Positions 369-28,217 of a DNA stretch of 64,000 bases are shown one piece after another. Numbering within the stretch: the stretch's first letter is position 1; every line of letters starts with the position of its first letter. Under the pieces are notes generated by a model. It was not told the DNA's origin and searched no databases. It saw only the letters and a program-made list of their open reading frames with translations. The stretch is from a virus (lineage: Duplodnaviria > Heunggongvirae > Uroviricota > Caudoviricetes), in the IMG/VR virus record IMGVR_UViG_3300035682_000015; one strand, given 5' to 3'. The position numbers and the translations under genes were made by a program.

Positions 369-370
369 TA

Positions 371-3228: not shown

Positions 3229-3230
3229 TT

Positions 3231-4460: not shown

Positions 4461-4481
4461 TTGTAAGATATTTATATAGGT

Positions 4482-7512: not shown

Positions 7513-7513
7513 A

Positions 7514-7845: not shown

Positions 7846-7858
7846 TTATATTTGTGCT

Positions 7859-8005
7859 ATGGATAATTTAAAAAAGTTTATAATAAAAAGAAAGTATGAC
7901 CTTTTGGCTGTGGTTAGTATTATTTTAATGATTTCAATTAATGTTATATTTGCAGTCCCGGCAATTATTTTTCTTATAATCGGAGAAAGTAAAACAAAAC
8001 ATTAA
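7859..8005 (+). CDS. small membrane peptide
   Basis: ATG 4 nt after TATATTTG (7847-7854). Confidence 0.4.
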   Translation: MDNLKKFIIKRKYDLLAVVSIILMISINVIFAVPAIIFLIIGESKTKH

Positions 8006-8526: not shown

Positions 8527-8527
8527 A

Positions 8528-8917
8528 ATGAAAAAACTATTATTAGTATTAGCGTTATTTTTAACAACATTAGTGTTCTCTCAGGAGAAACCATTCTTAA
8601 TGAGAGCGGAAACATTCCAAGCAGGGGTGGTTGATAATAAGGGGAATGTTGTGTGGGATAAATCTACAATTAGAAATTGTAATATTTTAATTAAGTTAGA
8701 GGATAGTAAAGTGACCATTTATTCAAAAACATCACAAGTTTATAATGTGATTACAATTGTAACAAAAAGTGATGAAGGAAATCAATGGTGTTGTCTTGAT
8801 GATAAAGGGGTTCGTTGTAATATCTATTTTATGCCGTTAAAAAATAACCCGGATAAATTAACATTGGGTGTTGAATATAGTGATTATGTTTGGTACTATA
8901 TTTGTAAAGAGAATTAA
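8528..8917 (+). CDS. secreted protein (signal peptide)
   Basis: N-terminal signal-like MKKLLLVLALFLTTLVFS. Confidence 0.55.
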   Translation: MKKLLLVLALFLTTLVFSQEKPFLMRAETFQAGVVDNKGNVVWDKSTIRNCNILIKLEDSKVTIYSKTSQVYNVITIVTKSDEGNQWCCLDDKGVRCNIYFMPLKNNPDKLTLGVEYSDYVWYYICKEN

Positions 8918-9547
8918 TATGTGGGAATATATTTTAATTAGTATTTTTGTAATCTTAGGGTTAGGGTCTTGGTTATTTATAATGTCGGAGTTACTTAAAA
9001 ATATTGTTAGACGATTAAAAGAAAGAAAAAAATAGGAAAACTTATCAAAATTGATGATAAATCAAAATAGATAACTATTTATGCGATGAAGATGTTTTAA
9101 TCTTCCCTAATCTATAAGTAATCTCAACAAAAATGAATTTCATTGCACCTGCCGCAATTCTCGTGATTTTAGTATCACTTGTTCTTTATTTAGTAAAGAA
9201 AACCCCTAAACAAATAGTTCAAGAGGAAGTGGTTATTGAACCACCGGTCAAGAAGAAAAGAGTGTATAAAAAGAAAACAAAAAAGGAATAATGGAAACAT
9301 TAGACCCTTCTGTTCCACTACCAATATTATTTGGTGTGATTTGTGTGTTAATGTTAATAGTGATAAAAGATGAGTTTAAAAAAGATAAAAATAAAAGTTA
9401 AATTATTGTTTGTGTTCTTCGGATGGTGTATATTAGATATACGAGAGAACTATAATGATATGAAATCTCGTTATCTTTTGGAAACGGACCCTGAACTATT
9501 AGAAATTCAGGAACATATTAAAGAATTAATGAAAAAGAAATAAAATT

Positions 9548-9578
9548 AACCCCCATTTAAACGATGGGGTTTTTTATT
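9548..9578 (+). terminator. intrinsic terminator
   Basis: CCCCAT-loop-ATGGGG + T-run. Confidence 0.65.
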
Positions 9579-9598
9579 TTTGTGATATATTTATAGAA

Positions 9599-9967
9599 AT
9601 GGAAATTAAAATTAGTCAGGAACGTTTAAAATATTTTGAAGATTTCATTTTTAATAGTTTTTATATTGATAATGAAGATTTATCTAAATGTTTTCACCCT
9701 CAAATGGGTTATATTAAATTTTTAACTCCTGGAACAAGACGAGATTTAATTGCTCAATATGATAAACAGTATAATTATATTACAGTATTTGATGATAAAT
9801 TATATGAATTAGTTAATCGTTGGGTTGGTTCTCGTACCATTTATGATTTAATTAAAGAAGATTTAATTAGGAGAGTTTTTAAGGTATATACCGAAAAATA
9901 TAAAGGAATATATAAAAAAGAACCAAAGGAGGTTAAGTTTGTTGATAAAGATTTTAATAAAGTTTAA
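9599..9967 (+). CDS. hypothetical protein
   Basis: 122 aa ATG ORF after terminator/ATATTTATA motif. Confidence 0.5.
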   Translation: MEIKISQERLKYFEDFIFNSFYIDNEDLSKCFHPQMGYIKFLTPGTRRDLIAQYDKQYNYITVFDDKLYELVNRWVGSRTIYDLIKEDLIRRVFKVYTEKYKGIYKKEPKEVKFVDKDFNKV

Positions 9968-9985
9968 TAATAAATGAAAAAAAAA

Positions 9986-10012
9986 TGAAGAAGTGTTTGG
10001 CACTTCTTTTTT
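9986..10012 (+). terminator. intrinsic terminator
   Basis: GAAGTG-loop-CACTTC + T-run, followed by TATATTTG-N4-ATG. Confidence 0.55.
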
Positions 10013-10030
10013 TATGCCTATATTTGTGCT

Positions 10031-10552
10031 ATGGAAATGGACTTTACAAAATACTCGGTAGAAGAATTAAGAGAACTTCAAAACAAGATTGGTTATTATT
10101 TACAAACTCGTAATGATGATTTTGTTTATATCTGTGAGATTAGGTCGTATGGTAAAAATTGGGTGAATAAATACACCAATGAACTTGCTGTGAATGATTT
10201 GTGTGCTGATTACGATGGTTATGATGGTATCGTGGATGTATATACAACCAATCCGGATGCAGATATTAATAACTACGGTGAGGTTAATTACATCAAATCG
10301 GATGAACAATACCGTAAGTGGAAAGATAGTGAGAAATTAATATCTTCAATAAAAAGTGCTGAGGAGAGGTTGGCAAAATGGAAAGATAGAGATAACATTC
10401 CATTCCATTCAAGACCAACCTTTGCTCCGATGTGGACAGAACAAGATATTCTTGGGTGGAGAAATGAATTAGAAACCATTGGTGAGTATGAAAAACCTAC
10501 ATCAATTAAAAAAAGTGAAGAGTATGAAGAATCTGACTATGAAGGAGATTAA
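10031..10552 (+). CDS. hypothetical acidic protein
   Basis: 173 aa. Confidence 0.5.
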   Translation: MEMDFTKYSVEELRELQNKIGYYLQTRNDDFVYICEIRSYGKNWVNKYTNELAVNDLCADYDGYDGIVDVYTTNPDADINNYGEVNYIKSDEQYRKWKDSEKLISSIKSAEERLAKWKDRDNIPFHSRPTFAPMWTEQDILGWRNELETIGEYEKPTSIKKSEEYEESDYEGD

Positions 10553-10886
10553 CAAGAAATATGTTAATCGTATTATTGAGTCATTAGAGAATGACAAAGA
10601 ACTTTGGACAAGAGAAGTTATGTGCGGGATGGATGGATGTTTTGTCGATTATTATAGTCCAAAATATCCAACAAAAAATGGGGAAACTTTATCATTTTCT
10701 GATAGGGACTACGTTAGTGCTTATATTGATGGTAAATTTGCGTGGGAAATTCCATTTTGGATGTATCACAATCCATTTAGTGATTCGTCAAGACAATTAA
10801 GAAGAGCAATGGATACGATGAGAGTATATCTTAATGATAAAGATGACCAAGAACATAAAAATAAATTAACAGATTCAATTGAATAA
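10539..10886 (+). CDS. hypothetical protein
   Basis: ATG MKEINKK in frame with ORF 10479; 14-nt overlap. Confidence 0.45.
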   Translation: MKEINKKYVNRIIESLENDKELWTREVMCGMDGCFVDYYSPKYPTKNGETLSFSDRDYVSAYIDGKFAWEIPFWMYHNPFSDSSRQLRRAMDTMRVYLNDKDDQEHKNKLTDSIE

Positions 10887-14997: not shown

Positions 14998-15573
14998 ATG
15001 ATTGATATGAAATTAAACGAACAATTAACAAAAATTAAATCAATGATGGGAATCAATGAAAACAAACAATCTTATCCATACTCTTGTGCTATGTTATACT
15101 TTAACCCGGATTCGGTTACAGAACTACATAGTAAAATAAACCCGGAGGACCTATACACAGAAGAAGATGGGTTTGGTTTAGAACCGGAATCACACTGTAC
15201 GTTACTATACGGATTACACGATAATGAGGTTGATATTGAAGATATTATTAACGTAATAAACAAATACTCTTACACAAATTGTAAGGCACATAACCTATCT
15301 TGTTTTAACAATCCAAAGTATGATGTGTTAAAATATGATATAATGGGGGATAATCTAAGTGAAACTAATGAGGAGTTAAAACAATTCCCATTCACAAGTG
15401 ATTACCCGGACTATCACGCCCATATGACCGTGGCATATCTTAAACCGGGTAAAGGTAATCATTATATTAATATGTTGGGTGATGAATACAAAGAAATGGT
15501 AATGACACCTCAACACGCTGTGTATTCAAGAACTGATGGTACCAAACACAAAATACCGGTTAGGTTTACATAA
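14998..15573 (+). CDS. 2H phosphoesterase superfamily protein (LigT/Acb1-like)
   Basis: Two H-x-T-x motifs 76 aa apart: HCTLLYGL (aa 66) and HMTVAYL (aa 142), matching HxTLxFxG / HxT[LV]A of LigT-type 2H enzymes. Confidence 0.55.
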   Translation: MIDMKLNEQLTKIKSMMGINENKQSYPYSCAMLYFNPDSVTELHSKINPEDLYTEEDGFGLEPESHCTLLYGLHDNEVDIEDIINVINKYSYTNCKAHNLSCFNNPKYDVLKYDIMGDNLSETNEELKQFPFTSDYPDYHAHMTVAYLKPGKGNHYINMLGDEYKEMVMTPQHAVYSRTDGTKHKIPVRFT

Positions 15574-15646
15574 CAATCTAACTCAGATTTACAATTCGGG
15601 TAATACCTGAGGAGTAGGAGTGACGGTCAGGAAAGACTGACAACTT

Positions 15647-15799
15647 GGTCAAGTGGCGAAAATGGTAGACGATAAGCACAGTGCGTGTGTGAGAGTTGTG
15701 ATGTAAGCTGGGGTGTACAACCCGGAGATTCCAATTATGGATTCAGTGGCGAACGCAAATAGCCATTAACTCGTACAGGTTCGAATCCTGTCTTGACCA
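15647..15799 (+). tRNA. tRNA gene with ~65-nt insertion (candidate intron); type-II (Leu-like) D-arm; anticodon unassigned
   Basis: Perfect 7-bp acceptor stem GGTCAAG/CTTGACC. T-arm ACAGG-TTCGAAT-CCTGT. D-loop GGCGAAAATGGTAGACG. Discriminator A. 153 nt total. Confidence 0.55.
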
Positions 15800-15839
15800 C
15801 AAATATATAAAAAAAGTTTGGATATATAAAAAATAGTAT

Positions 15840-15847
15840 TATCTTTG
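15840..15847 (+). promoter_or_regulatory. -7 promoter element TATCTTTG (copy 1 of duplicated 47-nt promoter unit)
   Basis: Identical unit at 16246-16292. Confidence 0.5.
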
Positions 15848-15874
15848 TGCTCAATATTAATTAAAAAAAAGACT

Positions 15875-16252
15875 ATGACAAAAACTCAGGAATATTTGAA
15901 AAACAAAAAAATACAAGAAATGGGTTTACCTAAATTGTATGTTGTTAAATCTTCCCCTGATGGGGTTGAAAAACCTATTGAGAGACAGGTTGTTGAAATC
16001 GAAGAAAATGTTGCGTTTAGAGGTAAAGAAAGATTACCGATTGACCGATACAAAGTTGAAAATGGTTATCCTTATGAAATAGATTTTCTTAGAGGTGAAA
16101 ACACTACAAAAGAAGATGGATACGGTTCAGGGATAGGTGATTTATGGGGTTGGTCGTATTTTTCAACCTTTTTAGAAGAAGAGGCTAAGATGTATTACAA
16201 CTTAGAGTTAAGTAGAGTTCAAAAAAAATATAATAAAAGTTTAACTATATAA
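15875..16252 (+). CDS. hypothetical protein
   Basis: ATG MTKTQEY; track start is TTG inside promoter. Confidence 0.5.
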   Translation: MTKTQEYLKNKKIQEMGLPKLYVVKSSPDGVEKPIERQVVEIEENVAFRGKERLPIDRYKVENGYPYEIDFLRGENTTKEDGYGSGIGDLWGWSYFSTFLEEEAKMYYNLELSRVQKKYNKSLTI

Positions 16253-16262
16253 AAAATAGTAT

Positions 16263-16270
16263 TATCTTTG
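16263..16270 (+). promoter_or_regulatory. -7 promoter element TATCTTTG (copy 2)
   Basis: Duplicate of 15823-15870. Confidence 0.5.
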
Positions 16271-16299
16271 TGCTCAATATTAATTAAAAAAAGAAAATT

Positions 16300-16815
16300 A
16301 TGATTTCAGAAGGTCAGTTTTTAGTGGGTTTGTTGATTGTGTTGACATTTGGTTTAACGTTTTTATTTAGAAAACTTGATAGTGATGGGGGTGTTCCTTG
16401 GTTATTATCGTCACTATTATCATTTTTTGCGTCGTGTCTATTGATTATTATAATCTTTTTCACAGTTAGATGGATAGATTCAAATGAAACTGAGTATTAC
16501 TCACGAAGAGCTAACATCACATCAATAAAGAATAATGATGAGGTTGGTGGCCATTTTATGTTGGGTTGTGGTAATATTGAACAAACGGAGTATTACTATT
16601 ACTATTACAAATCAGTAGATGGTTATGTGAGAGGTAAAAAACCGGTTAATAACACCTTCATTGTTGAGGATAGTTCAGTTAGACCACACGTTGAGGTTAA
16701 TATGACACATTTTGAATCAAAATCGGGGTTATTCACATATCACGATGAGGAAAATGAGAAATACAAAATAGTGGTACCAAAAGGTACTGTTGTTAATAAA
16801 TTTGAGGTATATTAA
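16300..16815 (+). CDS. membrane-anchored hypothetical protein
   Basis: N-terminal TM helices; C-terminus VVNKFEVY recurs as remnants downstream. Confidence 0.5.
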   Translation: MISEGQFLVGLLIVLTFGLTFLFRKLDSDGGVPWLLSSLLSFFASCLLIIIIFFTVRWIDSNETEYYSRRANITSIKNNDEVGGHFMLGCGNIEQTEYYYYYYKSVDGYVRGKKPVNNTFIVEDSSVRPHVEVNMTHFESKSGLFTYHDEENEKYKIVVPKGTVVNKFEVY

Positions 16816-16963
16816 TTATGATAGAAGATAAGATTGAAACATTTAAAAACAAATAACATGAAACAAACAAATATTGAACCACAATTAATTCCCTTAAAAG
16901 ATTTGATAAAAGAGTGGAAAAAAATAAAAGAATGGTTTAGTAAATTTAAAAAGAAATAAAGAT

Positions 16964-17410
16964 ATGAAACAAACAAAATTTGATATAGTTAAAGATGAAA
17001 AAGAAATAATAGATATTTTTAAATGGATTTCAAACAATAAATATGATGGTGAATATCCTAATTTTCAATTGCAAGGAACTTCTGAAAATATTAAATTACA
17101 TTTTCAAACATTTTTTGGTGAAAAAGAATTTGTAATAGATGATTGGTTAATTGATGGGGTTAAATACATTATGGAAGTTTATGGATATAAGTATAGTACA
17201 AACATAAAACCAATTAGTATTTCATTCAAAATTGATAATCCTAATTATGATGTGATTAATGACTTGATAAATGACTATGAAGGTGTTACTGTAGGTGGTA
17301 AATTACTTAAGAACTCAAATAAAAAAATAGTAAAATGTAAAACTTTTGATAAAATTGAAAAGGTTTTAAACTTAAAAGTTAGTAAATTATCTATTAAAAT
17401 ATCAAAATAA
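16964..17410 (+). CDS. hypothetical protein
   Basis: 148 aa. Confidence 0.5.
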   Translation: MKQTKFDIVKDEKEIIDIFKWISNNKYDGEYPNFQLQGTSENIKLHFQTFFGEKEFVIDDWLIDGVKYIMEVYGYKYSTNIKPISISFKIDNPNYDVINDLINDYEGVTVGGKLLKNSNKKIVKCKTFDKIEKVLNLKVSKLSIKISK

Positions 17411-17445
17411 ATACGCAAAAAAAAACAATTATAAAAAAATAAATT

Positions 17446-17712
17446 ATGAATATATTAGATATTGAAAAATTAAAACAACTTATATCAAGAACTGATATAA
17501 GTGGTAACGATAAGGTAAAATGGCTTACAGACTTTATAGATGGTAGAGAATTTCATCAACAAGAAAGAAGTTATAGTGAGGAAGAAGTATTTAGATTAAC
17601 ATTAGAAGCTTTAGACTTAGGAATGAGAATCAGGCAAGACCAATTAAATGGTTATTCTGAAAAATCTGGTAAAGAATTACATGAAGAATGGTTTGAACAA
17701 TTTAAAAAATAA
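17446..17712 (+). CDS. stand-alone C-module protein (QQERSYSEEE...WFEQFKK)
   Basis: Same module as C-termini of 28226, 29076, 30037 and 31280 genes. Confidence 0.5.
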   Translation: MNILDIEKLKQLISRTDISGNDKVKWLTDFIDGREFHQQERSYSEEEVFRLTLEALDLGMRIRQDQLNGYSEKSGKELHEEWFEQFKK

Positions 17713-17749
17713 AAATTATGGTGGTAAATACAATTGAGGTATATTAATT

Positions 17750-17965
17750 ATGATAGAAGATAAGATTGGGGGTCTAAATGATTCCGAAATTAACTTTCTA
17801 AAAGATTTTGGTACAGACCCTGTGTTAAGAAAGTTTATGACATCTGAAGAAATTAAGGTTTCAAATAAATTAGTTAAGAAAGGATTGATGGAAAAAGGAA
17901 TGTCTGACGATAAAAAGTCAAATGTTGTTTATTATGTTGATTCATTTATATATACAAGATTATGA
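17750..17965 (+). CDS. hypothetical small protein
   Basis: 71 aa. Confidence 0.4.
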   Translation: MIEDKIGGLNDSEINFLKDFGTDPVLRKFMTSEEIKVSNKLVKKGLMEKGMSDDKKSNVVYYVDSFIYTRL

Positions 17966-18054
17966 TAGTAAATACAATTGAATTCCCAACACCAATAGGG
18001 GTAAAATGTAATATGATGCCGTTCTATGGCAATACGAAGGTAGATAAAATTAAA

Positions 18055-18085
18055 CAAAGGAGATGTAACATTCTCCTTTTTTTTA
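18055..18085 (+). terminator. intrinsic terminator
   Basis: AGGAGA-loop-TCTCCT + T8, then TATATTTATATATATG start. Confidence 0.55.
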
Positions 18086-18096
18086 TATTTATATAT

Positions 18097-18594
18097 ATGA
18101 ATTTACAAGAGAATATAATTAGAATACAGGAAATGATGGGGATTATCTCTGAGGCTAAATCTTCATATACTGTATCTCAGATAAAGAAGGGGTTAAATAA
18201 GTCAGAAAACGACAAAGATATAACAATTAATACGAGTATTGATAATGTTATAGATAATATTGACCAATTTGAGTTTGAGATTGGTTCTGTAGAATCATTT
18301 TTAGATGATGAGAACAGTTTCACATCGGATTCGTTGGTGGATAAACTTATATCTTACGTCAAAGATAAGAATTTAAATATTGATATATCTAAATTGATTG
18401 AGTACAACAATTATAGAAAGGAGTACGATAAGAATGATGATAAAGTGTTTGAACTTTTATATAACACACACCCTGATGATGACTATTCAGAGGAGATAGA
18501 TAGGTTACGTGATAGAAATGATGAGTTATATAAGTATTTTGATTTACTAAAACAGGAAACCTTAAAGATTAAACAAGAGATTATTAATTTATAA
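18097..18594 (+). CDS. MNLQENI-leader family protein
   Basis: MNLQENIIRIQEMMGIISE. Confidence 0.5.
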   Translation: MNLQENIIRIQEMMGIISEAKSSYTVSQIKKGLNKSENDKDITINTSIDNVIDNIDQFEFEIGSVESFLDDENSFTSDSLVDKLISYVKDKNLNIDISKLIEYNNYRKEYDKNDDKVFELLYNTHPDDDYSEEIDRLRDRNDELYKYFDLLKQETLKIKQEIINL

Positions 18595-19364
18595 TGAATT
18601 TACAAGAAGATATACAGAGAATAAGACAGATGATGATTTCGGAAGAAATGGTTCAATCTGATGCGTGGAAATCAATCAAGAAAACATTAGACATTCTTAA
18701 AAAGAAAAAGAAAGTTTTAATCTTAAGTTGTTCCAATAGATATAATTGGGATGAGAAAAACCTTGACATACCAAAATCAAAGATGATTGCAATGTATCTT
18801 AACGATGAGTTAAAAAACTCAGTGTTAATTGATGTTTCCGAACTTAATATTGTTCCTTGTGAGGGGAATGTGTCGAGAAAAGACGGGAACAGTTGTGGTT
18901 TATTAAAAGCGATGCTCAAAGATAAGAAAAAGAATCCATCCGGTGACCATAGATGTTGGGCGAGTTATAACAATCCAAAGGATGAGTTATGGAAGATATC
19001 TAAGGAGTTATTTGAATCTGATGCTGTTGTATTCTTTAGTTCCGTAAGATGGGGACAGACCAATATGTTTTATCAGAATTTAATTGAGAGATTGACTTGG
19101 ATTGAGAACAGACACGCAACCTTGGGTGAATCAAATCTTGTTAAAGATATTGAGACAGGATTCATTTGTGTTGGACAGAATTGGAATGGTGAGAATGTGA
19201 CTGAAACACAGAAAGAAGTTCATAGGTTCTACGGATTCAAACCAAATAATGATTTATATTGGAATTGGCAATACACCAAGAATGTGAACGATGAAACCCA
19301 AAAATCATATAAGGATTCACACAAGAAATTTATCAAAGATACTAAATTATCTGATACCAAATAA
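18594..19364 (+). CDS. MNLQE-leader protein with flavodoxin-like/NADPH-FMN reductase-like fold
   Basis: KVLILSCSNR ... AVVFFSSVRWGQTNMFYQNLIER pattern resembles flavodoxin_2 family; weak. Confidence 0.4.
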   Translation: MNLQEDIQRIRQMMISEEMVQSDAWKSIKKTLDILKKKKKVLILSCSNRYNWDEKNLDIPKSKMIAMYLNDELKNSVLIDVSELNIVPCEGNVSRKDGNSCGLLKAMLKDKKKNPSGDHRCWASYNNPKDELWKISKELFESDAVVFFSSVRWGQTNMFYQNLIERLTWIENRHATLGESNLVKDIETGFICVGQNWNGENVTETQKEVHRFYGFKPNNDLYWNWQYTKNVNDETQKSYKDSHKKFIKDTKLSDTK

Positions 19365-19365
19365 T

Positions 19366-19800
19366 ATGAACTTACAAGAAAACATAGATAGAATACAAAT
19401 AATGATGGGAATTATCACAGAAAACAAGACAATTCAAAAAATGGTTGATGAGTTAGGTTTGGTAACGGCTATCAAATATTATGGGGGTTTTGATAATTTC
19501 ATTAAACATTATAGATTTCCACCTAAGGAGGAGATTCTTAATTTAATTAAGAAAGTATTCAAGGATTCAAAGACAAATGAATTTTATGATACAAATATTA
19601 ATATTTTAAATAGAAGAGATGATGAGGTGGATATTGTCAGTGTATTTCATCCTGATTCAATGTTTTTTGAGACCTACGAAACATTGGATGGTAGATTAAT
19701 AAAATTAAAAACAGAAAAAACAGTTAGATATGAGGATTTACCGGAGAATATTCTTAATAGAGTATTTTATGATATAATAAGATTGTCTGAAAAAAAATAA
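19366..19800 (+). CDS. MNLQENI-leader family protein
   Basis: MNLQENIDRIQIMMGIITE. Confidence 0.5.
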   Translation: MNLQENIDRIQIMMGIITENKTIQKMVDELGLVTAIKYYGGFDNFIKHYRFPPKEEILNLIKKVFKDSKTNEFYDTNINILNRRDDEVDIVSVFHPDSMFFETYETLDGRLIKLKTEKTVRYEDLPENILNRVFYDIIRLSEKK

Positions 19801-19806
19801 AACAAT

Positions 19807-20157
19807 ATGGACTTACGAGAGAACATAAGAACAGTATTAAGGGAGGAAACCAAAGTAGATTTAACTCGAGCAATACAAAGATTATTAAATGTGTTTGTTG
19901 ATAACCACAAAGACATTCTTTGTAGGGTTGAGGTTATCCATCCAAATAAGAGAATCAAACTACCGGAACATATGTATGACCACGAACACTACGCGGTTTA
20001 TTTCTATTTCATCGGGGGATATGGTAGTGTTAATTGGCCTGCCACCCGAGAGGTTTTGGATAAGTTTGATAAATTAATGAATGAAGCGTGGGGTTTGGTA
20101 TATAATTACACAAATCAAACAATAGATGTTTTTGCTAAACACGTAAAAGAATGTTAA
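19807..20157 (+). CDS. hypothetical protein
   Basis: MDLRENIRTVLREE leader variant. Confidence 0.5.
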   Translation: MDLRENIRTVLREETKVDLTRAIQRLLNVFVDNHKDILCRVEVIHPNKRIKLPEHMYDHEHYAVYFYFIGGYGSVNWPATREVLDKFDKLMNEAWGLVYNYTNQTIDVFAKHVKEC

Positions 20158-20175
20158 AACCTTATAAACGGGGGA

Positions 20176-20529
20176 TTAATTAATATGATATTTAGTGAGA
20201 TGATACTTACCACACTCATTACAATGCCAAGTAGTATATGTAACTTCTGTAACGTGTTGATTATAATTTTCTTCAATCCAAGGTATAAAGATTTTATTCA
20301 AGTCGTGACTATCAACACTAAATATAGAAACTAAAAATTGTTGTAGTTCATCATCCTCTATTGTGACAATACCGTAATCGTTACGAAATGTAAAAATGGT
20401 TGTCCCGTCTTTTTTTTTATAGTAAACTATTCCGTGACTATTCTCCATTCCAATTAAATCACCATAGTTATCGTCTAACCATTTAATAACAATATTGTTT
20501 CTTCTATTCTCTGTTAGTATTATTTTCAT
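20176..20529 (-). CDS. family-C paralog
   Basis: MKIILTENRRNNIVIKWLDDNYGDL. Confidence 0.55.
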   Translation of the reverse strand: MKIILTENRRNNIVIKWLDDNYGDLIGMENSHGIVYYKKKDGTTIFTFRNDYGIVTIEDDELQQFLVSIFSVDSHDLNKIFIPWIEENYNQHVTEVTYTTWHCNECGKYHLTKYHIN

Positions 20530-20553
20530 ATTATCTTAATTTTTAATGTTCCT

Positions 20554-20877
20554 TCACCCCCAATTTGATAACTCAGTAGTAGAAAGTATTCTTGTTACTC
20601 TTAAATTGTAACGTTCCTCCACCCATACCTTTGTTAAACTCTCAATTTGTTGGTTAGACATACTAAACATACGTTCAAAAAATGACCAAATTTCTTCATA
20701 AGTCACATAAACATACCCATTTTTTTTATTGTAATCAAAAATTATTTCTTCACCTTTTCGGTAAAAAATGTGGTTAGGAAATTTTTTTGGTTCATATGGT
20801 TTCAAATCACCATAGTTATTGTCTAACCATTTAATGGCGACTTTTTCTATTTTACTCTCAGTTATTATTACTTTCAT
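20554..20877 (-). CDS. family-C paralog
   Basis: MKVIITESKIEKVAIKWLDNNYG...YNKKNGYVYV; rc TATCTTTG at 20895-20902. Confidence 0.55.
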   Translation of the reverse strand: MKVIITESKIEKVAIKWLDNNYGDLKPYEPKKFPNHIFYRKGEEIIFDYNKKNGYVYVTYEEIWSFFERMFSMSNQQIESLTKVWVEERYNLRVTRILSTTELSNWG

Positions 20878-20960
20878 ATCAAATAAATATCTAACAAAGA
20901 TAAAACATTTTATTGATTATATGGGGGAAATTATATATTATTATAATAAAATTAAATACT

Positions 20961-21590
20961 ATGGAATTAATAGAATCGTTACAGTGGAGATATGCCACCA
21001 AGAAAATGAATGGGGATAAAATCCCACAAGATAAATTAGATAGAATCTTAGAGGCAACAAGATTGGCTCCGAGTTCATATGGGCTAACACCTTATCAGGT
21101 AATCGTGGTAGAGGACCAAGACTTAAAGGAACAATTGGTGGGAGCGTGTTATAACCAAACACAACTAAAAGATTCATCGGCTGTATTGGTATTCGCGGTG
21201 TGGGATACAATAGATGAAAATGAGGTGGAGTATTACATTAAGACTATGGCATTAGAAAGAAATATCCCGGTAGAAGTATTAAATGATTTCAAAGGAATGA
21301 TGTTAGGGACATTATCTAATATGACAGAGGAACAAAAAACTATATGGGCACAGAAACAAACGTATATAGGATTAGGATTCTCATTAGTGGCATCAGCAGT
21401 AGAAGGAATAGACTCTACTCCAATGGAGGGATTTGTACCATCACAGGTGGATGAGATATTAGGACTAAAAGAATTAGGGTTAAAGTCCACATTAGTTCTT
21501 ACGTTAGGATATAGAGATACAGAAGGAGATTCACTATCTACTATGAAGAAAATAAGAAGAGATGGTGAGAATTTCTTTATAAGAAAATAA
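20961..21590 (+). CDS. NAD(P)H nitroreductase family protein
   Basis: RYATKKM..DKIP..LDRILEATRLAPSS.GLTPYQVIVV nitroreductase N-terminal signature. Confidence 0.75.
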   Translation: MELIESLQWRYATKKMNGDKIPQDKLDRILEATRLAPSSYGLTPYQVIVVEDQDLKEQLVGACYNQTQLKDSSAVLVFAVWDTIDENEVEYYIKTMALERNIPVEVLNDFKGMMLGTLSNMTEEQKTIWAQKQTYIGLGFSLVASAVEGIDSTPMEGFVPSQVDEILGLKELGLKSTLVLTLGYRDTEGDSLSTMKKIRRDGENFFIRK

Positions 21591-21603
21591 TAGATACTAA
21601 TAA

Positions 21604-21630
21604 CCTCACCAATTAAAGGTGGGGTTTTTT
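21604..21630 (+). terminator. intrinsic terminator
   Basis: CCTCACC-loop-GGTGGGG + T-run. Confidence 0.65.
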
Positions 21631-21866
21631 ATTATAAGATAAAATACTAAACGATAAATCTATTCGTTCATAGTCCTACGTTCCACTCCGGAATTCACTC
21701 ATAGTTTCATCCTTTACTATTTTCTGTATATATTATAATTGTTTTACTCACCGTATATACATTTTACTTTTTACTATACATAGTAAAATAACAATATGTT
21801 CATAATTATTTTTGTTTCAGTGTTCATTTTTACTAATTTACCTATATTTATAATAAAAGATAAGTT

Positions 21867-22373
21867 ATGATTAATTGTACAAAATGTGGGGAAAATAAAG
21901 ATGAGTGTTATTTCAGACCAAGACCAACATTAAAAAGGGGGTTTCAATCTTGGTGTAAAGAGTGTGAATATAAACAAAATCGTCAAAGATATATACCAAA
22001 AGAACGAATTAAAAACGATATAAATCCTGATGAGGTAAAACTATTGGCAAAGAAACGAATGTTAAAACATAGATATTCATTAGAGTATGATGAATATAAT
22101 CAAATGTATAATAATCAAAATGGGGAATGTCTTATATGTGGGGTTAAAAAAAAATTAGGTAGTTCTAAAGGTTTATTAGTAGACCATTGTCATAACTCTA
22201 ATAAAGTTAGAGGATTACTATGTAGTAATTGTAATTCAGGGTTAGGTAAATTTATGGATAACACAAATATACTATTAAAAGCAATTAACTACCTTAATAA
22301 AACAATCCCCCCATTTAATGTGGGGACATTCTGTCCCCCCGTACAGAGTGGGACTTATGAGGGACACGATTAG
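21867..22373 (+). CDS. HNH endonuclease
   Basis: CxxC...LVDHCHNSNKVRGLLCSNCN HNH/EndoVII motif; N-terminal Cys4 zinc ribbon. Confidence 0.75.
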   Translation: MINCTKCGENKDECYFRPRPTLKRGFQSWCKECEYKQNRQRYIPKERIKNDINPDEVKLLAKKRMLKHRYSLEYDEYNQMYNNQNGECLICGVKKKLGSSKGLLVDHCHNSNKVRGLLCSNCNSGLGKFMDNTNILLKAINYLNKTIPPFNVGTFCPPVQSGTYEGHD

Positions 22374-22955
22374 TAATCCGGTATGGTGTTCATTTGTAGT
22401 TATATGTTCATTTGCAATGAACATTCTCATATTTTGAACTTAAACGGGATGTTATGGTAAGTTATGTTTTGTATCAGTGTAGTCAGTTTAAAACTCACAT
22501 GAGTGATACAAATAATAACTTTTAATGGTATTTTGTGTCTCTGTGGTGTCCCATATATAAACAATTTAGTTCGTTGATTAGTGGTCAATTATATACCCCT
22601 GACGGGTCGTTGAAGTAATCCTTCTAACACCTAACGGTTCCAACGCGTCACTAACCATTACTTACATAATTTACTGGGAAACGTATATAGTAAAATAATT
22701 GGTCCTGAGAGTACCTACAGAGGGGAAAAAGTGACTCTACACTATACTTAGACACAATAATGGTGGGAAAAAGTGGTAACAAAGGGTAATGTCCTACACC
22801 TAAAAGGGGGAAAAAGGATTATCCCCAATGAAGAAAGAGACTGACATTTTGTCAAAATCAAGAATTTTAACATAAAAAGTTATTAACAATTCCCCCTGAC
22901 AGTGTTGATAAGTCAATTGTTGATAACTATATTTAGAAAAAGTTATTAACAATAT

Positions 22956-23303
22956 ATGTACTTAGAATCATTTACCTCAAAGTATTCCGGTGAACCTTCA
23001 TACTTATCGGGTTTTACCCCCACTGTCACTATGTCACTTCCTTCGGTTGGTCTATCGACAGATAACACTTATATCGTGGATTACGGTATAGGAGAGTGTG
23101 TTTATTCCTATCAGAGGATGGGAAAAAGAATCAAGCAGGATGTCCTTCAACTAATCAAATGTGATATGTGGAAGGTTATAACTGTAATTAACGAAGAGTC
23201 CCCACTGAATGAGGGGGATTACAAGGACCTGAATATGGAAATCCGGAACCATTCTCTACAGTGTGTTACTGATTTTATAAATCGTAGGGGTCTTTCTGAC
23301 TAA
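22956..23303 (+). CDS. hypothetical protein of island
   Basis: 115 aa ORF starting right after repeat set. Confidence 0.3.
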   Translation: MYLESFTSKYSGEPSYLSGFTPTVTMSLPSVGLSTDNTYIVDYGIGECVYSYQRMGKRIKQDVLQLIKCDMWKVITVINEESPLNEGDYKDLNMEIRNHSLQCVTDFINRRGLSD

Positions 23304-23684
23304 TATGTTTTCTCCACCACTTAGAGAGGATACTATCCGGAGATAGAGTGGGGATAAGAAGTGCCTCAATGATAACAAAACATAACAGGATAAAGGTCAG
23401 ACATAGTAGAACAATAATAATAATCATAGTTTAATTATTTAAGGGTTACCGGTGGTTATCACCGTCAATCCCCAAAGATATGAATAAATTATGACATTAT
23501 CAAACAATCCCCCATTTATTTGAGAATAGTTATTAACCTATAGGATAAAGTACTGAGGGTGAGATGATTATTCGTAATGAAATCCCCATTCTACTGAGAA
23601 TACTAATGATTCCGGGGATAATCCCACCCCCAAGATGGGGGAAATTAAACGATTCTTAATGAAACCCCCAATCTACTGAGAATA

Positions 23685-24380
23685 ATGGGGGAATTAAAAA
23701 TAAAGTACTTACTCCGATTATCATATTCTCAAAGAATGGGGATTTATATTAAATATAAAGCAGGTTGGAGTCTACTCTTCCACCACTCGGTACGCCCCCA
23801 TCCGGACTATCTACCGGTAATGTGGTACAAAGATATAACAAATAATCTACACCACCAAATAAAATGGGGAAAGATTATTAATTATTATTTCAATATATTT
23901 ATATGTATGATAGAGACAAAACCTAAAGATATAACCCCAATCAAAAGAAAGGGGATAGATATGACCGTTAAAGGTCTACAAAAGAAATACCCATTCATAA
24001 TAGGATATAAGGATGATACAACAACTCAATATATATCATTACACTACATTGATTTAATAATAGACCTCAACAAACTATCTGAGTATGCGGATGTCCCGGT
24101 TAACCCATATTGGGAATCATATGTACTTGCGAACCCCCAATACGAAAAAGTATATGCCTTATGGTCCTATTTAGAATTCCCCAATAATGATTTGTTTGGG
24201 GATATTAAAGACCATCCCGGATATATAATACAACAGAAGGTAGTAGAGGACCTCGAATTTATATACTCACACCTACCATCTCAACTAACACTACACTATA
24301 CTCCCAAATCAACTTTCTTCCCCGATGACCCACCAACTTATACCGTGAGATTAAAACCTAACGCATATCTAATGAGGTAA
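23685..24380 (+). CDS. hypothetical protein of island (candidate initiator; start uncertain)
   Basis: 231 aa ORF; stop is immediately followed by 3x23-bp iterons. Confidence 0.35.
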   Translation: MGELKIKYLLRLSYSQRMGIYIKYKAGWSLLFHHSVRPHPDYLPVMWYKDITNNLHHQIKWGKIINYYFNIFICMIETKPKDITPIKRKGIDMTVKGLQKKYPFIIGYKDDTTTQYISLHYIDLIIDLNKLSEYADVPVNPYWESYVLANPQYEKVYALWSYLEFPNNDLFGDIKDHPGYIIQQKVVEDLEFIYSHLPSQLTLHYTPKSTFFPDDPPTYTVRLKPNAYLMR

Positions 24381-24449
24381 CACTCCCGTTGGTTGGTCTC
24401 TGACACTCCCGTTGGTTGGTCTCTGACACTCCCGTTGGTTGGTCTCTGA
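24381..24449 (+). repeat. 3 perfect tandem copies of 23-bp unit CACTCCCGTTGGTTGGTCTCTGA
   Basis: Read directly: copies at 24381, 24404, 24427. Confidence 0.9.
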
Positions 24450-24558
24450 CACCATGTCATGTTAATAACTTTGTTGATAACTTTTTACCTTAACTTATTA
24501 ACAATGTCATACTGTCATGTTGATAAGTTTTTTTGGATATGTCAAATATACCCCCACT

Positions 24559-24589
24559 CCCCCCATCTTTTACCGGGGGGTTTTTTTTT
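24559..24589 (+). terminator. intrinsic terminator
   Basis: CCCCCC-loop-GGGGGG + T9. Confidence 0.5.
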
Positions 24590-24846
24590 AACCCCTCCCC
24601 TAAACACCCCCCATACCCCCTCCCTATCCCCCGTGGGGGTATCCCCCCTCCCCTCCCTCCCCCTTATATAACCCAAATAGGGGGGATAATCCTCTCGATG
24701 ACGTGTATGGGGGAAAAAAACTTTATATGAAAATCGTTTTAAAATTTCTAAAAAAATTTTTGGAAAAAATCCCCCGGTATAAATGGGGTGGTCAAATAGT
24801 GAAAAAAAATTTTTGGAAAAAAATTGATTGTAAAAGGGGAATATCT

Positions 24847-24854
24847 TATCTTTG
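24847..24854 (+). promoter_or_regulatory. -7 promoter element TATCTTTG
   Basis: upstream of 24913. Confidence 0.45.
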
Positions 24855-24912
24855 TTGACTATGGAAAAGATATATTCAATTTGTGGGAATAAAAAACCGA
24901 AAGAAAAGTAAT

Positions 24913-25401
24913 ATGATGATAAGTAAATTAAAGATGTTAAAGATTGGGGAGACCTTGAAGGATTTTAAGTGTTTGGTTTCAAGATTTAATGAGGTAAAGG
25001 GTGATAGAATATTATTGAGGGAGTTCTGTTTAAGAAATAGAAATCCCATATGGGATTTAACGGGTATAAATTATTTCAAGACCGGATTAAAATCTGAGGG
25101 ATTGATTCGGGATGGGGGTAAGAAAAAGGATGACCATTATATTCAAAGGTCTTTATGTATGGAGATTATCTTTAAGGAATTGAATGCTAACCCGGATATG
25201 AATGTTGATGAATTTATTGAATTACTTCGTAAGTATTCATCTACAGTTCAATTGACGGAAGAGGAACATAAGAAAATAACATTATATACGAGGAATACTG
25301 ATATTATGAATTATACGGCTTATGGTGATGTTGGTATAATTGTTAAAGGTCTTAAGGAGATTATTAATTCTACCCCCGCTTATGTAGTTGGGGGTTTGTG
25401 A
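24913..25401 (+). CDS. hypothetical protein
   Basis: ATG MMISKLK; track start is GTG. Confidence 0.5.
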   Translation: MMISKLKMLKIGETLKDFKCLVSRFNEVKGDRILLREFCLRNRNPIWDLTGINYFKTGLKSEGLIRDGGKKKDDHYIQRSLCMEIIFKELNANPDMNVDEFIELLRKYSSTVQLTEEEHKKITLYTRNTDIMNYTAYGDVGIIVKGLKEIINSTPAYVVGGL

Positions 25402-25402
25402 A

Positions 25403-25449
25403 CCCGAACTCCCTCCGGTCGGGATTCAATCCCCCCGCCCCCTTTTTTT
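25403..25449 (+). repeat. conserved C-rich post-gene element, copy 1
   Basis: AACCCnnACTCCCTCCGGTCG..ATTCAA.CCCCCCGCCCCC-T7 shared with 26877 and 33227. Confidence 0.7.
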
Positions 25450-25473
25450 ATGAAAATTAATATATTTATTAGT

Positions 25474-26067
25474 ATGAAAAATTTGTTAAACGAAGAGATT
25501 GGTAAAATTAAAAAAATGATGGGTATATCTCATAAACCAATCAACTTACCTTATCACGAACATCTTATTGAAATTTATTCTGATATTCCCACCGAAATTA
25601 CTGAAAACTCTGAGGTTGATGATAGATATATTGTTATAAATAAAATTAAACATAACGATTTTATTCATAGTCCAAAATTATTTTTGAAGTCTATTAGAAA
25701 ATCATCTCGTGGTGAGATGTTAACCGAATATTCTTTGGAAGAATTGGAGGATATGTTAACATTTAAGTTGGATGGTTATGATATTGGTTATGCTTTGAAG
25801 AAAGGTGATGGTGATGAGTATAATGAAATTGTGTCTGTTTTCAATAATTCGGGAATTAAAGGTATTGGTGATGCGTTAATTAAGTCAGCAATTAAAAATG
25901 GTGGTCGTTATTTGGACCATTATGATGGATTTCTAAGTGGTTTTTACTCCAAACACGGGTTTGAGGAGTATAAACGAGATAAATTTGACCCCCAATATGA
26001 CCCAAACGGTGAATTTAGAGATAAATACGGAGAATCTGATATTATCTATAGAAAATACAACACTTAA
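25474..26067 (+). CDS. GNAT-family acetyltransferase-like protein
   Basis: Motif A-like NSGIKGIGDALIKSAIKNG and GFYSKHGFEEY; weak. Confidence 0.4.
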   Translation: MKNLLNEEIGKIKKMMGISHKPINLPYHEHLIEIYSDIPTEITENSEVDDRYIVINKIKHNDFIHSPKLFLKSIRKSSRGEMLTEYSLEELEDMLTFKLDGYDIGYALKKGDGDEYNEIVSVFNNSGIKGIGDALIKSAIKNGGRYLDHYDGFLSGFYSKHGFEEYKRDKFDPQYDPNGEFRDKYGESDIIYRKYNT

Positions 26068-26105
26068 TAATTGTTTTTGATGTTAATTTATCTTATTATT
26101 TTAAT

Positions 26106-26876
26106 ATGAACGTATTAACAAACACTTTATTGGGGAACGATGTAATCATTGACATAATTGAAGGTCAAATGATTCTACATATTCCACATTCAAAAACAGA
26201 AATACCATTTTATGATGGATTTAATATGAATTATATTGAAAATGAGACCAAATTATTGGTTGATTTTGCTACTGATAAAATTTTTGACATCCCTAATGTC
26301 GAATCTCTAACTTTTGAGTATAATAGAATATTTTGTGACGTTGAAAGATTGGACGATAATGATGAACCATTATTTAATCTTGGTAGAGGTTTTTTTTATA
26401 CCAAAACTGATGACGGAAAAGACCTTAGAGTGTTAGATGATATGGTGAAAAAAAAGATTAAAGAAGAATTTTATGATATTCACCATAATAAATTGAATCA
26501 AATGGTTGAATATAGGTTGAATGAGTATGGTTGTGCAGTAATTATTGATTGTCATTCGTTTAGTGATATCCCATTTATAACTGATTTAGATAAAAGTGAG
26601 GTTAGACCGGACATTTGTTTAGGTGTTGATGATTTTCACACACCAAAATGGTTAATTAATCAAATTAAATCATATTTTGAATATCATAATTTATCTGTTA
26701 AAATAAATTCCCCGTACTCAGGGACAATAATTCCATTAAAATATTATAATAAAAACAAAAATGTTATTGGAATTATGATTGAGGTGAATCGAAAACTTTA
26801 TATGGATGAATTTATTGTTGATGATAATAAGGTTGATGAATTAAATTCTATTATTAAAAAATCTTTATTCATATAA
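26106..26876 (+). CDS. N-formylglutamate amidohydrolase-like zinc amidohydrolase
   Basis: HIPHS...IP and IIDCHS motifs reminiscent of FGase family; weak. Confidence 0.35.
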   Translation: MNVLTNTLLGNDVIIDIIEGQMILHIPHSKTEIPFYDGFNMNYIENETKLLVDFATDKIFDIPNVESLTFEYNRIFCDVERLDDNDEPLFNLGRGFFYTKTDDGKDLRVLDDMVKKKIKEEFYDIHHNKLNQMVEYRLNEYGCAVIIDCHSFSDIPFITDLDKSEVRPDICLGVDDFHTPKWLINQIKSYFEYHNLSVKINSPYSGTIIPLKYYNKNKNVIGIMIEVNRKLYMDEFIVDDNKVDELNSIIKKSLFI

Positions 26877-26923
26877 CCCGGACTCGTTTCACTCGTATTC
26901 AAATCCCCCCGCCCCCTTTTTTT
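26877..26923 (+). repeat. conserved C-rich post-gene element, copy 2
   Basis: see 25403. Confidence 0.7.
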
Positions 26924-26956
26924 TGGATAATATTTGGTGGAATGAAATGTTTGTAT

Positions 26957-26964
26957 TATCTTTG
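26957..26964 (+). promoter_or_regulatory. -7 promoter element TATCTTTG (duplicated unit AATGAAATGTTTGT.TTATCTTTGT also at 27509)
   Basis: direct read. Confidence 0.5.
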
Positions 26965-26982
26965 TTCTTTAAATTTTATAAA

Positions 26983-27495
26983 ATGGTTGATTATCAAACT
27001 TACGAAGAATTACCTAAACGGATTCAATACTATGTGAACTCAATAAAAGAAACGGGTTATGACGATATTAGAAGTTTTCAATTCCCTTGTAAATATTTTG
27101 GGGGTAATTCTTTTGGATGTAGTATTTGGATTGATGCTGAAGAAATGGTAAAAGGTCTCATTCCTTACCGAGGTGTGATTCAAAATATGATAACGAATAG
27201 TTTAACAAAAAATATATTCAATATTGGGTATTTGCATATTTCTGTTCATTATAAAAACAAACAACAGTTGGGTAAGAAATTCCTCCCGGAATTAAAAAAA
27301 CGATTAAAGGAATCTCTTGCCGGTAAATATATTCATTCTGTTCGTTTTGATGAAAACTCTCGTAACAATGACCCCGAAGTTTTTGTTGTGTTAAGACGTG
27401 ATAACGATATTGAAACTTGGGGTATTGTGAAAAATATTCTTGAGGATTTCAAAATTGAAAAAGGTTATCCTAATTTGTATGTTAAAATTTCTTAA
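26983..27495 (+). CDS. hypothetical protein
   Basis: ATG MVDYQTYEEL 18 nt after motif. Confidence 0.5.
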   Translation: MVDYQTYEELPKRIQYYVNSIKETGYDDIRSFQFPCKYFGGNSFGCSIWIDAEEMVKGLIPYRGVIQNMITNSLTKNIFNIGYLHISVHYKNKQQLGKKFLPELKKRLKESLAGKYIHSVRFDENSRNNDPEVFVVLRRDNDIETWGIVKNILEDFKIEKGYPNLYVKIS

Positions 27496-27546
27496 TATTT
27501 GGCCGTATGAAATGTTTGTTATATCTTTGTCGGAAATAAATTGATT

Positions 27547-27690
27547 ATGAGAGATAGAATAAAAAAATGGTGGAATAGGACTTGGTCCAATTGGGAGGTT
27601 GATACTAAGAGTAAGTGGTATTTTTATATTATACTTAAGAGAACATCCAACGATGGTTTAATCCAATTTAAAAAAATAAAAACTGGGGTA
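27547..27690 (+). CDS. small basic protein
   Basis: 47 aa; ATGA overlap with next. Confidence 0.3.
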
Positions 27691-28217
27691 TGAAAAACAT
27701 TTATTTAATTCCGACAGATAAACGGACTCGATTACATTATGACCACACCGGTTTATTTTTATCTCACCATTATCAGGTAAGTAAGGAGATTAATTCAATT
27801 GTTGAAGGCAGATATATCTACATTACATCGGATGAATACATTGGGTTGAATTGGTATATTGATGGTGGCTGGGTAAGAAAGGGTGTTATTGATGATAAGG
27901 ATTATTGGTCTGTTAGAAAGGATTATAAAAAAATCGTTATAACCAATGACCCCAAGTTAATTAAGGATGGCGTTCAGGATATTGGGGACGGTGTGATGGA
28001 TTGGTTCATTGAGAACCCCACCTGTGAATACTTCAATATTGAACAGTACAATTCATATGGGATTGATAATTGGAAGTACTTGGTAACTCTTCCAACGGAT
28101 AAGATTGACTTTGAAAAGGAGTTATCTAAATGGGGTTACAATAAGGGTAATTCAATTGACGTTGAGATTTTGGTTAATGAGATACTTCCAAAATTATTTG
28201 AACAATTTAAAAAATAA
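27690..28217 (+). CDS. modular paralog 1 (N-module MKNIYLIPTDK + diverged central module)
   Basis: Tandem array member. Confidence 0.55.
   Translation: MKNIYLIPTDKRTRLHYDHTGLFLSHHYQVSKEINSIVEGRYIYITSDEYIGLNWYIDGGWVRKGVIDDKDYWSVRKDYKKIVITNDPKLIKDGVQDIGDGVMDWFIENPTCEYFNIEQYNSYGIDNWKYLVTLPTDKIDFEKELSKWGYNKGNSIDVEILVNEILPKLFEQFKK

Follow-up and report, generated by a model that had tools for sequence, protein, structure and literature searches.

Two arrays of variant DnaA-box-like sites flank a conserved two-gene cassette in an uncultivated jumbo-phage lineage

The Caudoviricetes record IMGVR_UViG_3300035682_000015 was analysed as a single stretch of 64,000 nucleotides (the window), which carries a small cassette of two open reading frames (ORFs) with a cluster of a short repeated site, the box, on either side. 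ORF1 (115 aa; 22956-23303, plus strand) is conserved, always adjoins the left array and has no recognised fold. ORF2 (157 aa from the ATG at 23907; 23907-24380, plus strand) has its own TATATTTA box at 23894-23901, and its N-terminal alpha/beta domain gave only weak KH-like fold matches. Between the two lies a hydrophobic antisense ORF of 50 aa (23275-23427, minus strand) with a promoter-like TTGATA-N17-TATCTT at ~23475-23503; genes of 49-66 aa are called at the same position in the related loci L001, L130, and L131. The clusters occupy 22874-22953 and 24460-24527 and are ~75 nt each, and all eight sites in them, four left and four right, are copies of one asymmetric unit, AGTTAT(T/C)AACA, on either strand. 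All motifs that an initial annotation of this DNA had listed for the two flanks were recovered at their positions, while the four TGTCAT copies that it counted on the right flank are actually three (24455, 24505, and 24513) plus one TGTCAA (24540).

The boxes are concentrated at this locus. The motif TGTTRATAAS has 9 matches in the 64 kb against 1.8 expected, a number reached in none of 100 shuffles, and 8 of the 9 fall in the clusters, as do all 5 matches of AGTTATYAACA in the window. At least 3 TTATNAACA sites within 120 nt are found in the two clusters only, which have 4 each, and the maximum per 120 nt never reached 4 in 200 local shuffles; the shuffles rule out chance or base composition as the source of the clusters. 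Within the window the motifs are thus not scattered at similar density throughout, in keeping with the clustering that the initial annotation had pointed out. A general phage promoter motif was considered and rejected, since there are no other box clusters in the 64 kb and the promoter-like box that does recur is [TG]ATATTT[AGT]. The consensus sequences of PhoB, LexA, IHF, Fur, and parS fitted neither spacing nor sequence and were dropped. A search of the whole window against Rfam gave no match at gathering thresholds, and only noise at 22300-25000.

The same distribution is seen in relatives. A count of TTATYAACA across 56 distinct related loci (209 kb) gives 113 copies in the left flank, 93 in the right flank, 9 between them and 20 elsewhere, and 12 of these 20 belong to two loci that each have an HNH gene between the left array and ORF1. 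The left cluster usually has 3-4 boxes and the right cluster 0-4, at a spacing of 0.94-1.83 kb. The consensus from 206 instances is A (98%, position -2), G (88%, position -1), TTAT, Y, AACA, with an A-rich 5' flank. The conserved A and G stand on one side only, and the central position, which may be T, C, or G, changes with no compensating change in the partner box. The asymmetry and the uncompensated centre therefore favour sequence-specific recognition by a protein over RNA pairing or a symmetric dimer site, and they do not support the earlier suggestion that the near-palindrome is a dimeric binding site.

The left array overlaps the ORF1 promoter. Box L1 (AAAAAGTTATTAACAAT, plus strand, 22874-22890, with core TTATTAACA at 22880-22888) lies just upstream of the promoter, and its AGTTAT.AACA is kept in 33 of 33 main-group relatives. 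A palindromic CTGACAG (22896-22902; 32 of 33 relatives) separates L1 from L2 (TGTTGATAAG, minus strand, 22903-22912), which reads TTATCAACA on that strand, supplies the -35/-33 element TTGATA as well and is the least conserved box. L3 (TGTTGATAAC, minus strand, 22918-22927; 32 of 33) sits in the promoter spacer and abuts the -10/-7 box TATATTTA (22928-22935, plus strand), which is invariant in all 33. L4 (AAAAAGTTATTAACAAT, plus strand, 22937-22953; 33 of 33) ends 2 nt before the ORF1 ATG (22956) and spans the 16-nt leader and the transcription start, predicted at ~22940 from a published box-to-start distance (PMC6847099). The promoter fits both TTGATA-N17-TATATT, which does not vary within the main group, and the Bacteroidota TAnnTTTG type. 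In one subgroup of relatives L2-L4 are lost and a perfect TTGACA-N17-TATAAT stands in the same position, which fixes the promoter reading. Judged by position, L1-L4 would be typical of a factor that gates initiation. Among 33 distinct main-group loci, the mean pairwise identity of the left array (the 84 nt before the ORF1 ATG) is 0.908, and that of ORF1 is 0.573 at codon position 3 and 0.721 at positions 1 and 2. The left boxes are also kept before ORF1 in relatives that share 31-36% ORF1 identity and have no ORF2.

The ORF2 stop precedes the right array and a terminator follows it, which places the array in the 3' untranslated part of the ORF1-ORF2 unit. It consists of R1 (TGTTAATAAC, minus strand, 24460-24469), R2 (TGTTGATAAC, minus strand, 24472-24481), whose 9-mer is 3 bp from that of R1, R3 (CTTATTAACA, plus strand, 24494-24503, with core TTATTAACA at 24495-24503), and R4 (TGTTGATAAG, minus strand, 24518-24527), which is preceded by TGTCAT..CTGTCAT. 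In relatives, CTGTCAG, the same element as the CTGACAG on the left, separates the last two boxes. A conserved AT-rich near-palindrome, TTTGGATATGTCAAATATAC (24532-24551), follows, within which the moderately conserved minus-strand TATATTTG (24543-24550) is a possible antisense promoter box. The unit is closed by an intrinsic terminator on the plus strand at 24559-24589 (C6 stem, loop, G6 stem, T9). All 53 relatives whose downstream sequence is long enough have a G-run plus T-run signal of this kind, and covariation in the stem is seen as compensatory changes in 3 of its 6 pairs. Identity in the core of the right cluster is 0.854, versus 0.596 at codon position 3 and 0.762 at positions 1 and 2 of ORF2. 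A hidden ORF starting from the ATG in the right cluster (24459-24671) was rejected, as neither the ATG nor the frame is conserved. With the left array on a promoter and both arrays under strong purifying selection, the idea that the flanks are bracketing protein-binding sites is upheld, the binder itself being predicted.

The locus is present in dozens of related metagenomic jumbo-phage contigs, in the order nitroreductase, long non-coding stretch, left cluster, ORF1, antisense ORF, ORF2, right cluster, terminator, and C-rich tract. At E ≤ 0.001 we found 319 homologues of ORF1 and 81 of ORF2, and both occur together in 65 fetched loci. The relatives are metagenomic contigs only, mostly from freshwater and up to 249-317 kb long, which indicates an uncultivated jumbo-phage lineage; searches of cultured phages gave no similarity around the locus by blastn and none to ORF1 by tblastn.

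We then compared the box with known protein-binding sites. Its 9-mer is TTATCCACA with A replacing C at position 6 (the A6 variant), which the initial annotation had described as one mismatch from the DnaA-box consensus. The low-GC Firmicute Thermoanaerobacter tengcongensis has the DnaA-box consensus TTATCNACA (PMC1888806). Four of the eight boxes are TTATCAACA and fit this consensus, and the other four are TTATTAACA. An oligonucleotide with TGTTGATAA-GCC-TGTGGATAA is listed for electrophoretic mobility shift assays with T. tengcongensis DnaA, whose 12 boxes form two groups, one of them over the dnaA promoter, and whose efficient binding needs neighbouring boxes (PMC1888806). The sequence TTATCAACA is also listed as a box of the origin of the linear Cyanothece chromosome (PMC4674748), and Davison gave both TTATCAACA and TTATTAACA as variant DnaA boxes ('DnaA*') of T5-like phages (10.1101/866236).

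Bacterial genomes were scanned, one per species and in 8-kb loci, for the inverted pair AGTTATYAACA-N4..30-TGTTRATAAC. The pair was found in at least 120 loci. Among the matches listed, 24 carry dnaA, 21 of them within 470 nt; roughly estimated from the sizes of genes and genomes, without computation, this proximity is a few hundred times that of a random position. Pfam confirmed DnaA in loci L403, L354, and L358. AGTTATYAACA stands directly beside dnaA in metagenome-assembled genomes of Bacilli, Ignavibacteria, Clostridia, and Tenericutes. In five loci, L354 (7728-7846; Bacilli), L358 (1845-2086; Ignavibacteria), L360, L451, and L456, the arrays, each within ~300 nt of dnaA, are purely of the A6 type (TTATYAACA), with no box fitting TTATNCACA. 

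The same pair was then sought in 2.9 million viral contigs with a composition-matched reversed control. It is at least 5-fold commoner than the control (at least 119 loci against 24), and most of the matches listed are unrelated phages. The viral boxes often stand in arrays, interleaved with canonical DnaA boxes, among them TGTGGATAAC, TGTGTATAAC, and TGTGCATAAC. Contigs of SPP1-like siphophages carry ~7-12 DnaA-type boxes between the genes for minor capsid protein 2 and the scaffold (L293, 1127-1312; L271, 1177-1290; L242, 2664-2788; L222, 6460-6628; L287, 1331-1516), in arrays that mix TTATCAACA with canonical TTATCCACA, TTATACACA, and TTATGCACA; strong Shine-Dalgarno sites make Firmicute hosts probable for these contigs. 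A site family common to bacterial dnaA regions and to many unrelated phages points to a host factor. The published consensus, the variant boxes of T5-like phages and the enrichment of the pair beside dnaA take the resemblance to a DnaA box, as a class of site, beyond a one-mismatch coincidence.

Several observations weigh against DnaA. None of the eight boxes fits the strict Escherichia coli consensus TT(A/T)TNCACA (TTATNCACA); the window has 3 matches to it versus 5.8 expected, all of them outside the clusters. Among 268 boxes from 77 relatives, ~97% have A at position 6 and only 7 are TTATTCACA, so binding would need a host DnaA that tolerates or favours A6. The TTATTAACA boxes, half of the total, are two mismatches away from TTATCCACA. 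The motif is not exclusive to dnaA-proximal DNA, as 96 of the 120 bacterial matches listed lack dnaA within 8 kb. Nor is there a clear promoter for the right array to regulate. DnaA leaves unexplained the CTGWCAG element, the TGTCA repeats and the TGACATTTTGTCA palindrome that are conserved in the clusters, and it does not predict that the central position is T in 82% of plus-oriented boxes and C in 76% of minus-oriented ones. Summed over all readings that involve it, DnaA is nevertheless the probable binder on the sequence evidence.

We favour the explanation, at about even confidence, that host DnaA occupies both arrays, that the left array gates the ORF1 promoter and that the arrays may in addition form a loop, sequester DnaA, or both. 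The phage would recruit host DnaA to both flanks of the ORF1-ORF2 cassette through arrays of A6 boxes. Boxes lie on the -35 region (L2), in the spacer (L3) and on the start and leader (L4), so bound DnaA would gate transcription of ORF1, and of ORF2 with it. The right array would be a second DnaA platform ~1.5 kb from the left one, and the two could be bridged into a DnaA-held loop, as proposed for bipartite chromosomal origins and for the T5 first-step-transfer region. Both arrays could also soak up host DnaA. In support of this explanation stand the clustering of the sites, their conservation above that of the adjacent coding DNA, the overlap with the promoter, the terminator, and the identity of the motif with dnaA-proximal and T5 sites; DnaA as the binder, the looping and the regulatory outcome are inferred.

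Alternatively, the boxes could be operators of a phage protein, with ORF1 as the best candidate, that regulates its own gene and loops two operator sets. ORF1 is beside the left array even in distant relatives that have neither ORF2 nor the right array, boxes cover the -35 region, spacer and start site of its promoter, and a strict preference for A6 would be natural for a dedicated protein. The lambda operators OL and OR share with our locus two sets of 3-4 sites, ~1.5-2.4 kb apart, that bracket a cassette (cI-rexAB in lambda) with one set over its promoter. They differ in that no gene resembling a helix-turn-helix repressor lies in or beside the cassette here, and models of ORF1 and ORF2 showed neither a helix-turn-helix nor any other recognised DNA-binding fold. 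Moreover, the extended motif occurs in many unrelated phages and, beside dnaA, across bacterial phyla, and homologues of ORF1 were found neither in 185,579 bacterial species genomes nor in cultured phages. We regard such operators as unlikely.

A further, likewise unlikely alternative is a stop or anchor for DNA injection of the type proposed for T5, in which the arrays and the repeat-rich DNA around them would hold the entering genome on membrane-bound DnaA and so pause entry, or anchor the end, until early proteins act. In the first-step-transfer part of the terminal repeat of 25 T5-like phages, Davison described a pair of inverted-repeat elements separated by 1.85-4.26 kb, with four DnaA or variant boxes per element (8 in total) and with pairs 3 bp apart (10.1101/866236). 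These elements, Repeat regions 2 and 3 (IRC-spacer-IRD and IRD'-spacer-IRC'), lie in long non-coding DNA that has many repeats and palindromes and is better conserved than the neighbouring genes (10.1101/866236). Membrane-bound DnaA on the boxes was proposed to stop injection, and the boxes were argued not to be an origin (10.1101/866236). When we checked the T5 injection-stop region (iss) directly, it contained TGTTGATAAC, TGTTGATAAG-TC-TGTGGATAAC, and TGGGGATAA, with canonical boxes in the other element.

The likeness between T5 and our locus extends to many features. Both have two elements of about four boxes each (4+4 here), the variants TTATCAACA and TTATTAACA with TTATCCCCA nearby, and a box pair separated by 3 bp (R1/R2 here). 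In both, the spacing is variable and on the kb scale (0.9-1.8 kb in our relatives), the interval holds small, poorly conserved or unidentified ORFs that include a small membrane protein, the setting is long, non-coding, rich in repeats and palindromes and conserved above coding DNA, and a homing-endonuclease gene lies alongside. The 33-nt repeats at 23496-23684 here, with their TGAGAAT core, are similar to the AAATGAGAATCATT repeats of T5. The lineages, however, are unrelated, and the contigs here are freshwater jumbo contigs of 250-317 kb with ~30% GC. Here the boxes are A6 variants throughout, with no canonical one among them, the left array merges with a promoter and a start codon, and the orientation of the elements is ambiguous. 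No homologues of T5 A1, A2, or dmp were found in the window or in related loci, and a tblastn search of 15 T5 first-step-transfer proteins against the window gave a best E of 0.001, for a 50-aa stretch of T5.003.

The position of the locus in contigs can be read in two ways. It lies within 20 kb of an end in 3 of 6 large contigs (1-6800 of 249 kb, 301-10765 of 317 kb, and 13-19 kb of 208 kb), as a stop near a genome end would have it, but it is internal in other large contigs (66-78 kb of 308 kb; 222-234 kb of 272 kb). The contig ends are explained equally well by assemblies breaking in a C-rich tract or a variable 23-nt repeat, and at least 7 contigs break 120-400 nt after ORF2, at this repeat or tract. 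The T5 model is itself an in-silico hypothesis. By sequence and layout, the arrays are of a known kind, DnaA-box-type clusters on phage DNA in the arrangement of the T5 iss, and what is new is the unrelated lineage and the use of A6-variant boxes only. That this lineage independently evolved a T5-like region for injection stop or DnaA anchoring, and that phage arrays of DnaA-box variants are a widespread and overlooked exploitation of the host initiator (at least 119 viral contigs, for example between SPP1-like head genes), is a rather unlikely extension of these parallels.

A bipartite DnaA-dependent phage origin, with two box clusters ~1.5 kb apart like those that flank dnaA in some chromosomes, would draw on the same motif evidence as recruitment of host DnaA to the cassette. 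Clusters of the T. tengcongensis type at oriC and the dnaA promoter share with our arrays the 9-mer TTATCAACA, the two groups with one over a promoter, and the neighbouring boxes; the region here is AT-rich, has long palindromes (22459-22521) and shows G-rich/C-rich strand asymmetry in the flanking DNA. Chromosomal clusters differ in that dnaA lies beside them and phage genes lie beside ours, where no unwinding element or skew switch was seen, and the TTATTAACA boxes fall outside the chromosomal consensus TTATCNACA. The cumulative GC skew rises steadily over 1-64000 with no switch, and the C-rich tract and minus-strand genes cause only local dips. Scans of the ORFs at 14998-28217, three of at least 100 aa excepted (15845-16252, 20176-20529, and 24883-25401), recognised no helicase, primase, initiator, or polymerase. 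Inspection, with no dedicated scan, revealed no clear unwinding element, repeated 13-mer or DnaA-trio beside the arrays. With the analogous T5 boxes argued not to be an origin either (10.1101/866236), this function appears improbable.

It is much less probable that the boxes act as RNA. The inverted pairs L1/L2, L3/L4, and R3/R4 could form hairpins in plus-strand transcripts to control their translation or stability, one case being L3:L4, which would mask the ORF1 start in read-through RNA. The orientation bias given above places G on the plus strand in most minus-oriented boxes and would permit G-U wobble pairing, the right array is transcribed because it lies upstream of the terminator, and the motif stands directly before the ATGs of ORF1, of a second ORF2 copy in L132 and of an extra ORF in L165. 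Against this, the box sequence is kept without covariation, central T-to-G or G-to-C changes being uncompensated; L1-L3 lie upstream of the predicted transcription start, the bias rests on about six ancestral sites, and in other phages and upstream of dnaA the motif also occurs as tandem direct repeats, which cannot pair.

Least credible of all is the suggestion of the initial annotation that the flanks are terminal inverted repeats or recombination sites of a mobile or excisable cassette of ~1.6 kb: although a 23-nt inverted match of 87% (22867-22889 to 24471-24493), a ~40-bp composite (box, CTGWCAG, box) on both flanks, and variable gene content beside the boxes (ORF2 duplicated in L132, the extra ORF in L165, HNH insertions) would suit it, the inverted match consists of the boxes themselves, the locus is fixed with the same neighbours in relatives, including the nitroreductase upstream, conservation continues past both clusters, by ~500 nt on the left and ~250 nt on the right, so the clusters are not the boundaries of a mobile unit, no transposase or recombinase was found and neither ORF1 nor ORF2 has such a domain, and no empty site, solo hybrid site, circular product, other genomic position or, by inspection just outside the two flanks, target-site duplication was seen.

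If DnaA does bind, a large group of freshwater jumbo phages would couple a conserved early cassette, genome entry or replication to the host initiator. The layout is very similar to that of the T5 injection-stop region, long unexplained, and an independent second example, unrelated in sequence, would strengthen the case for paired DnaA-box arrays as a functional module and supply comparative data on essential boxes, spacings and partner elements. A6 arrays are enriched in phage contigs, and in some bacteria all boxes of the dnaA-proximal array are of this type. These results have a bearing on how origins are predicted in low-GC and FCB-group bacteria, since the tools now in use assume TTATCCACA and those built on the E. 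coli box could miss A6 arrays, and on the hijacking or titration of DnaA by phages.

The arrays are embedded in ~3 kb of conserved, mostly non-coding DNA with many direct and inverted repeats. Upstream of the left array, ~470 highly conserved non-coding nt (22396-22870) hold three units of the GGGGAAAAAG type, a hairpin that changes by a compensatory indel (AACC-TAAC-GGTT versus AACAC-ACTAC-GTGTT), and an invariant GGATTATCCCCA that includes TTATCCCCA (22819-22827), the variant DnaA box also present in the T5 iss. A large structured RNA upstream of ORF1 was rejected, as RNAalifold on 38 loci gave few local hairpins and -14 kcal/mol over 592 columns. All relatives keep a 31-bp imperfect palindrome at 22459-22521. 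Two variant groups differ by a flip of its inner arms, with the loop in the same orientation in both, which suggests inversion across the palindrome. The 33-nt repeats at 23496-23684 and 23724-23741 comprise three direct copies and one inverted copy with the core CCCCCAT..TGAGAAT, and relatives have two copies in opposite orientation.

Between ORF2 and the right array, outside the conserved part, lies a strain-variable insert at 24380-24452, a tandem repeat of 3.2 copies of the 23-nt unit ACACTCCCGTTGGTTGGTCTCTG. A diverged copy, 63% identical over 27 nt, lies in ORF1 at 23034-23060, and some ORF1 homologues have an in-frame insert of 8 residues (LPSVGLST) at this site. In L130, L147, L178, L180, L195, and L207, one 23-nt unit stands between TGTCAC and CCTGTCAG of the right cluster. 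The unit is bounded by TGTCA/TGACA inverted ends, and near-identical strains have spacings from ORF2 to the next gene of 510, 531, and 554, steps of ~22 nt that fit copy-number variation; it looks like a tiny hairpin-type insert. After the terminator, a conserved C-rich tract (24590-24700) has runs of the CCCCTCCCC type and an GGGGGTATCCCCCC hairpin and ends with GGGGGGATAATCC, the inverted copy of GGATTATCCCC on the left-hand side. Many metagenome contigs stop in or near this tract.

The window as a whole has ~30% GC and short, tightly packed genes, mostly on the plus strand. Its phage hallmarks are a thymidylate synthase (52118-53266), an I-TevI-like GIY-YIG endonuclease (53323-54153), an endonuclease VII/HNH gene (21867-22373), and a nitroreductase (20913-21590). 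A Shine-Dalgarno-like sequence precedes 1 of 61 genes, versus a background of 8%, and the [TG]ATATTT[AGT] box recurs 4-7 nt before many start codons, often after the T-run of a terminator (for example at 4467, 9586, 10019, 12535, 23894, 33279, 37461, 41847, and 55964). Bacteroidota lack Shine-Dalgarno sites and use a -7 box TAnnTTTG (PMC6847099). The window genes would accordingly have Bacteroidota-type promoters and nearly leaderless mRNAs, as these signals imply, and the missing Shine-Dalgarno sites together with the TAnnTTTG-like box lead us to infer, short of proof, a host from the Bacteroidota or the wider FCB group.

Homing-endonuclease genes have invaded the locus repeatedly. In the window, the endonuclease VII gene interrupts the conserved non-coding DNA as an insertion, with its 3' end running into that DNA; L001 and L005 do not have the gene. 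Its promoter and leader (21843-21866) are found nearly identical before an ORF at 44320. Another HNH gene stands exactly between the left array and the ORF1 start in L132 (3161-3781), L170, and L179. In L132, a contig of 317 kb, ORF2 is duplicated in tandem (5001-5948), and a single box, TAAGTTATTAACATG, joins the stop of the first copy to the start of the second.

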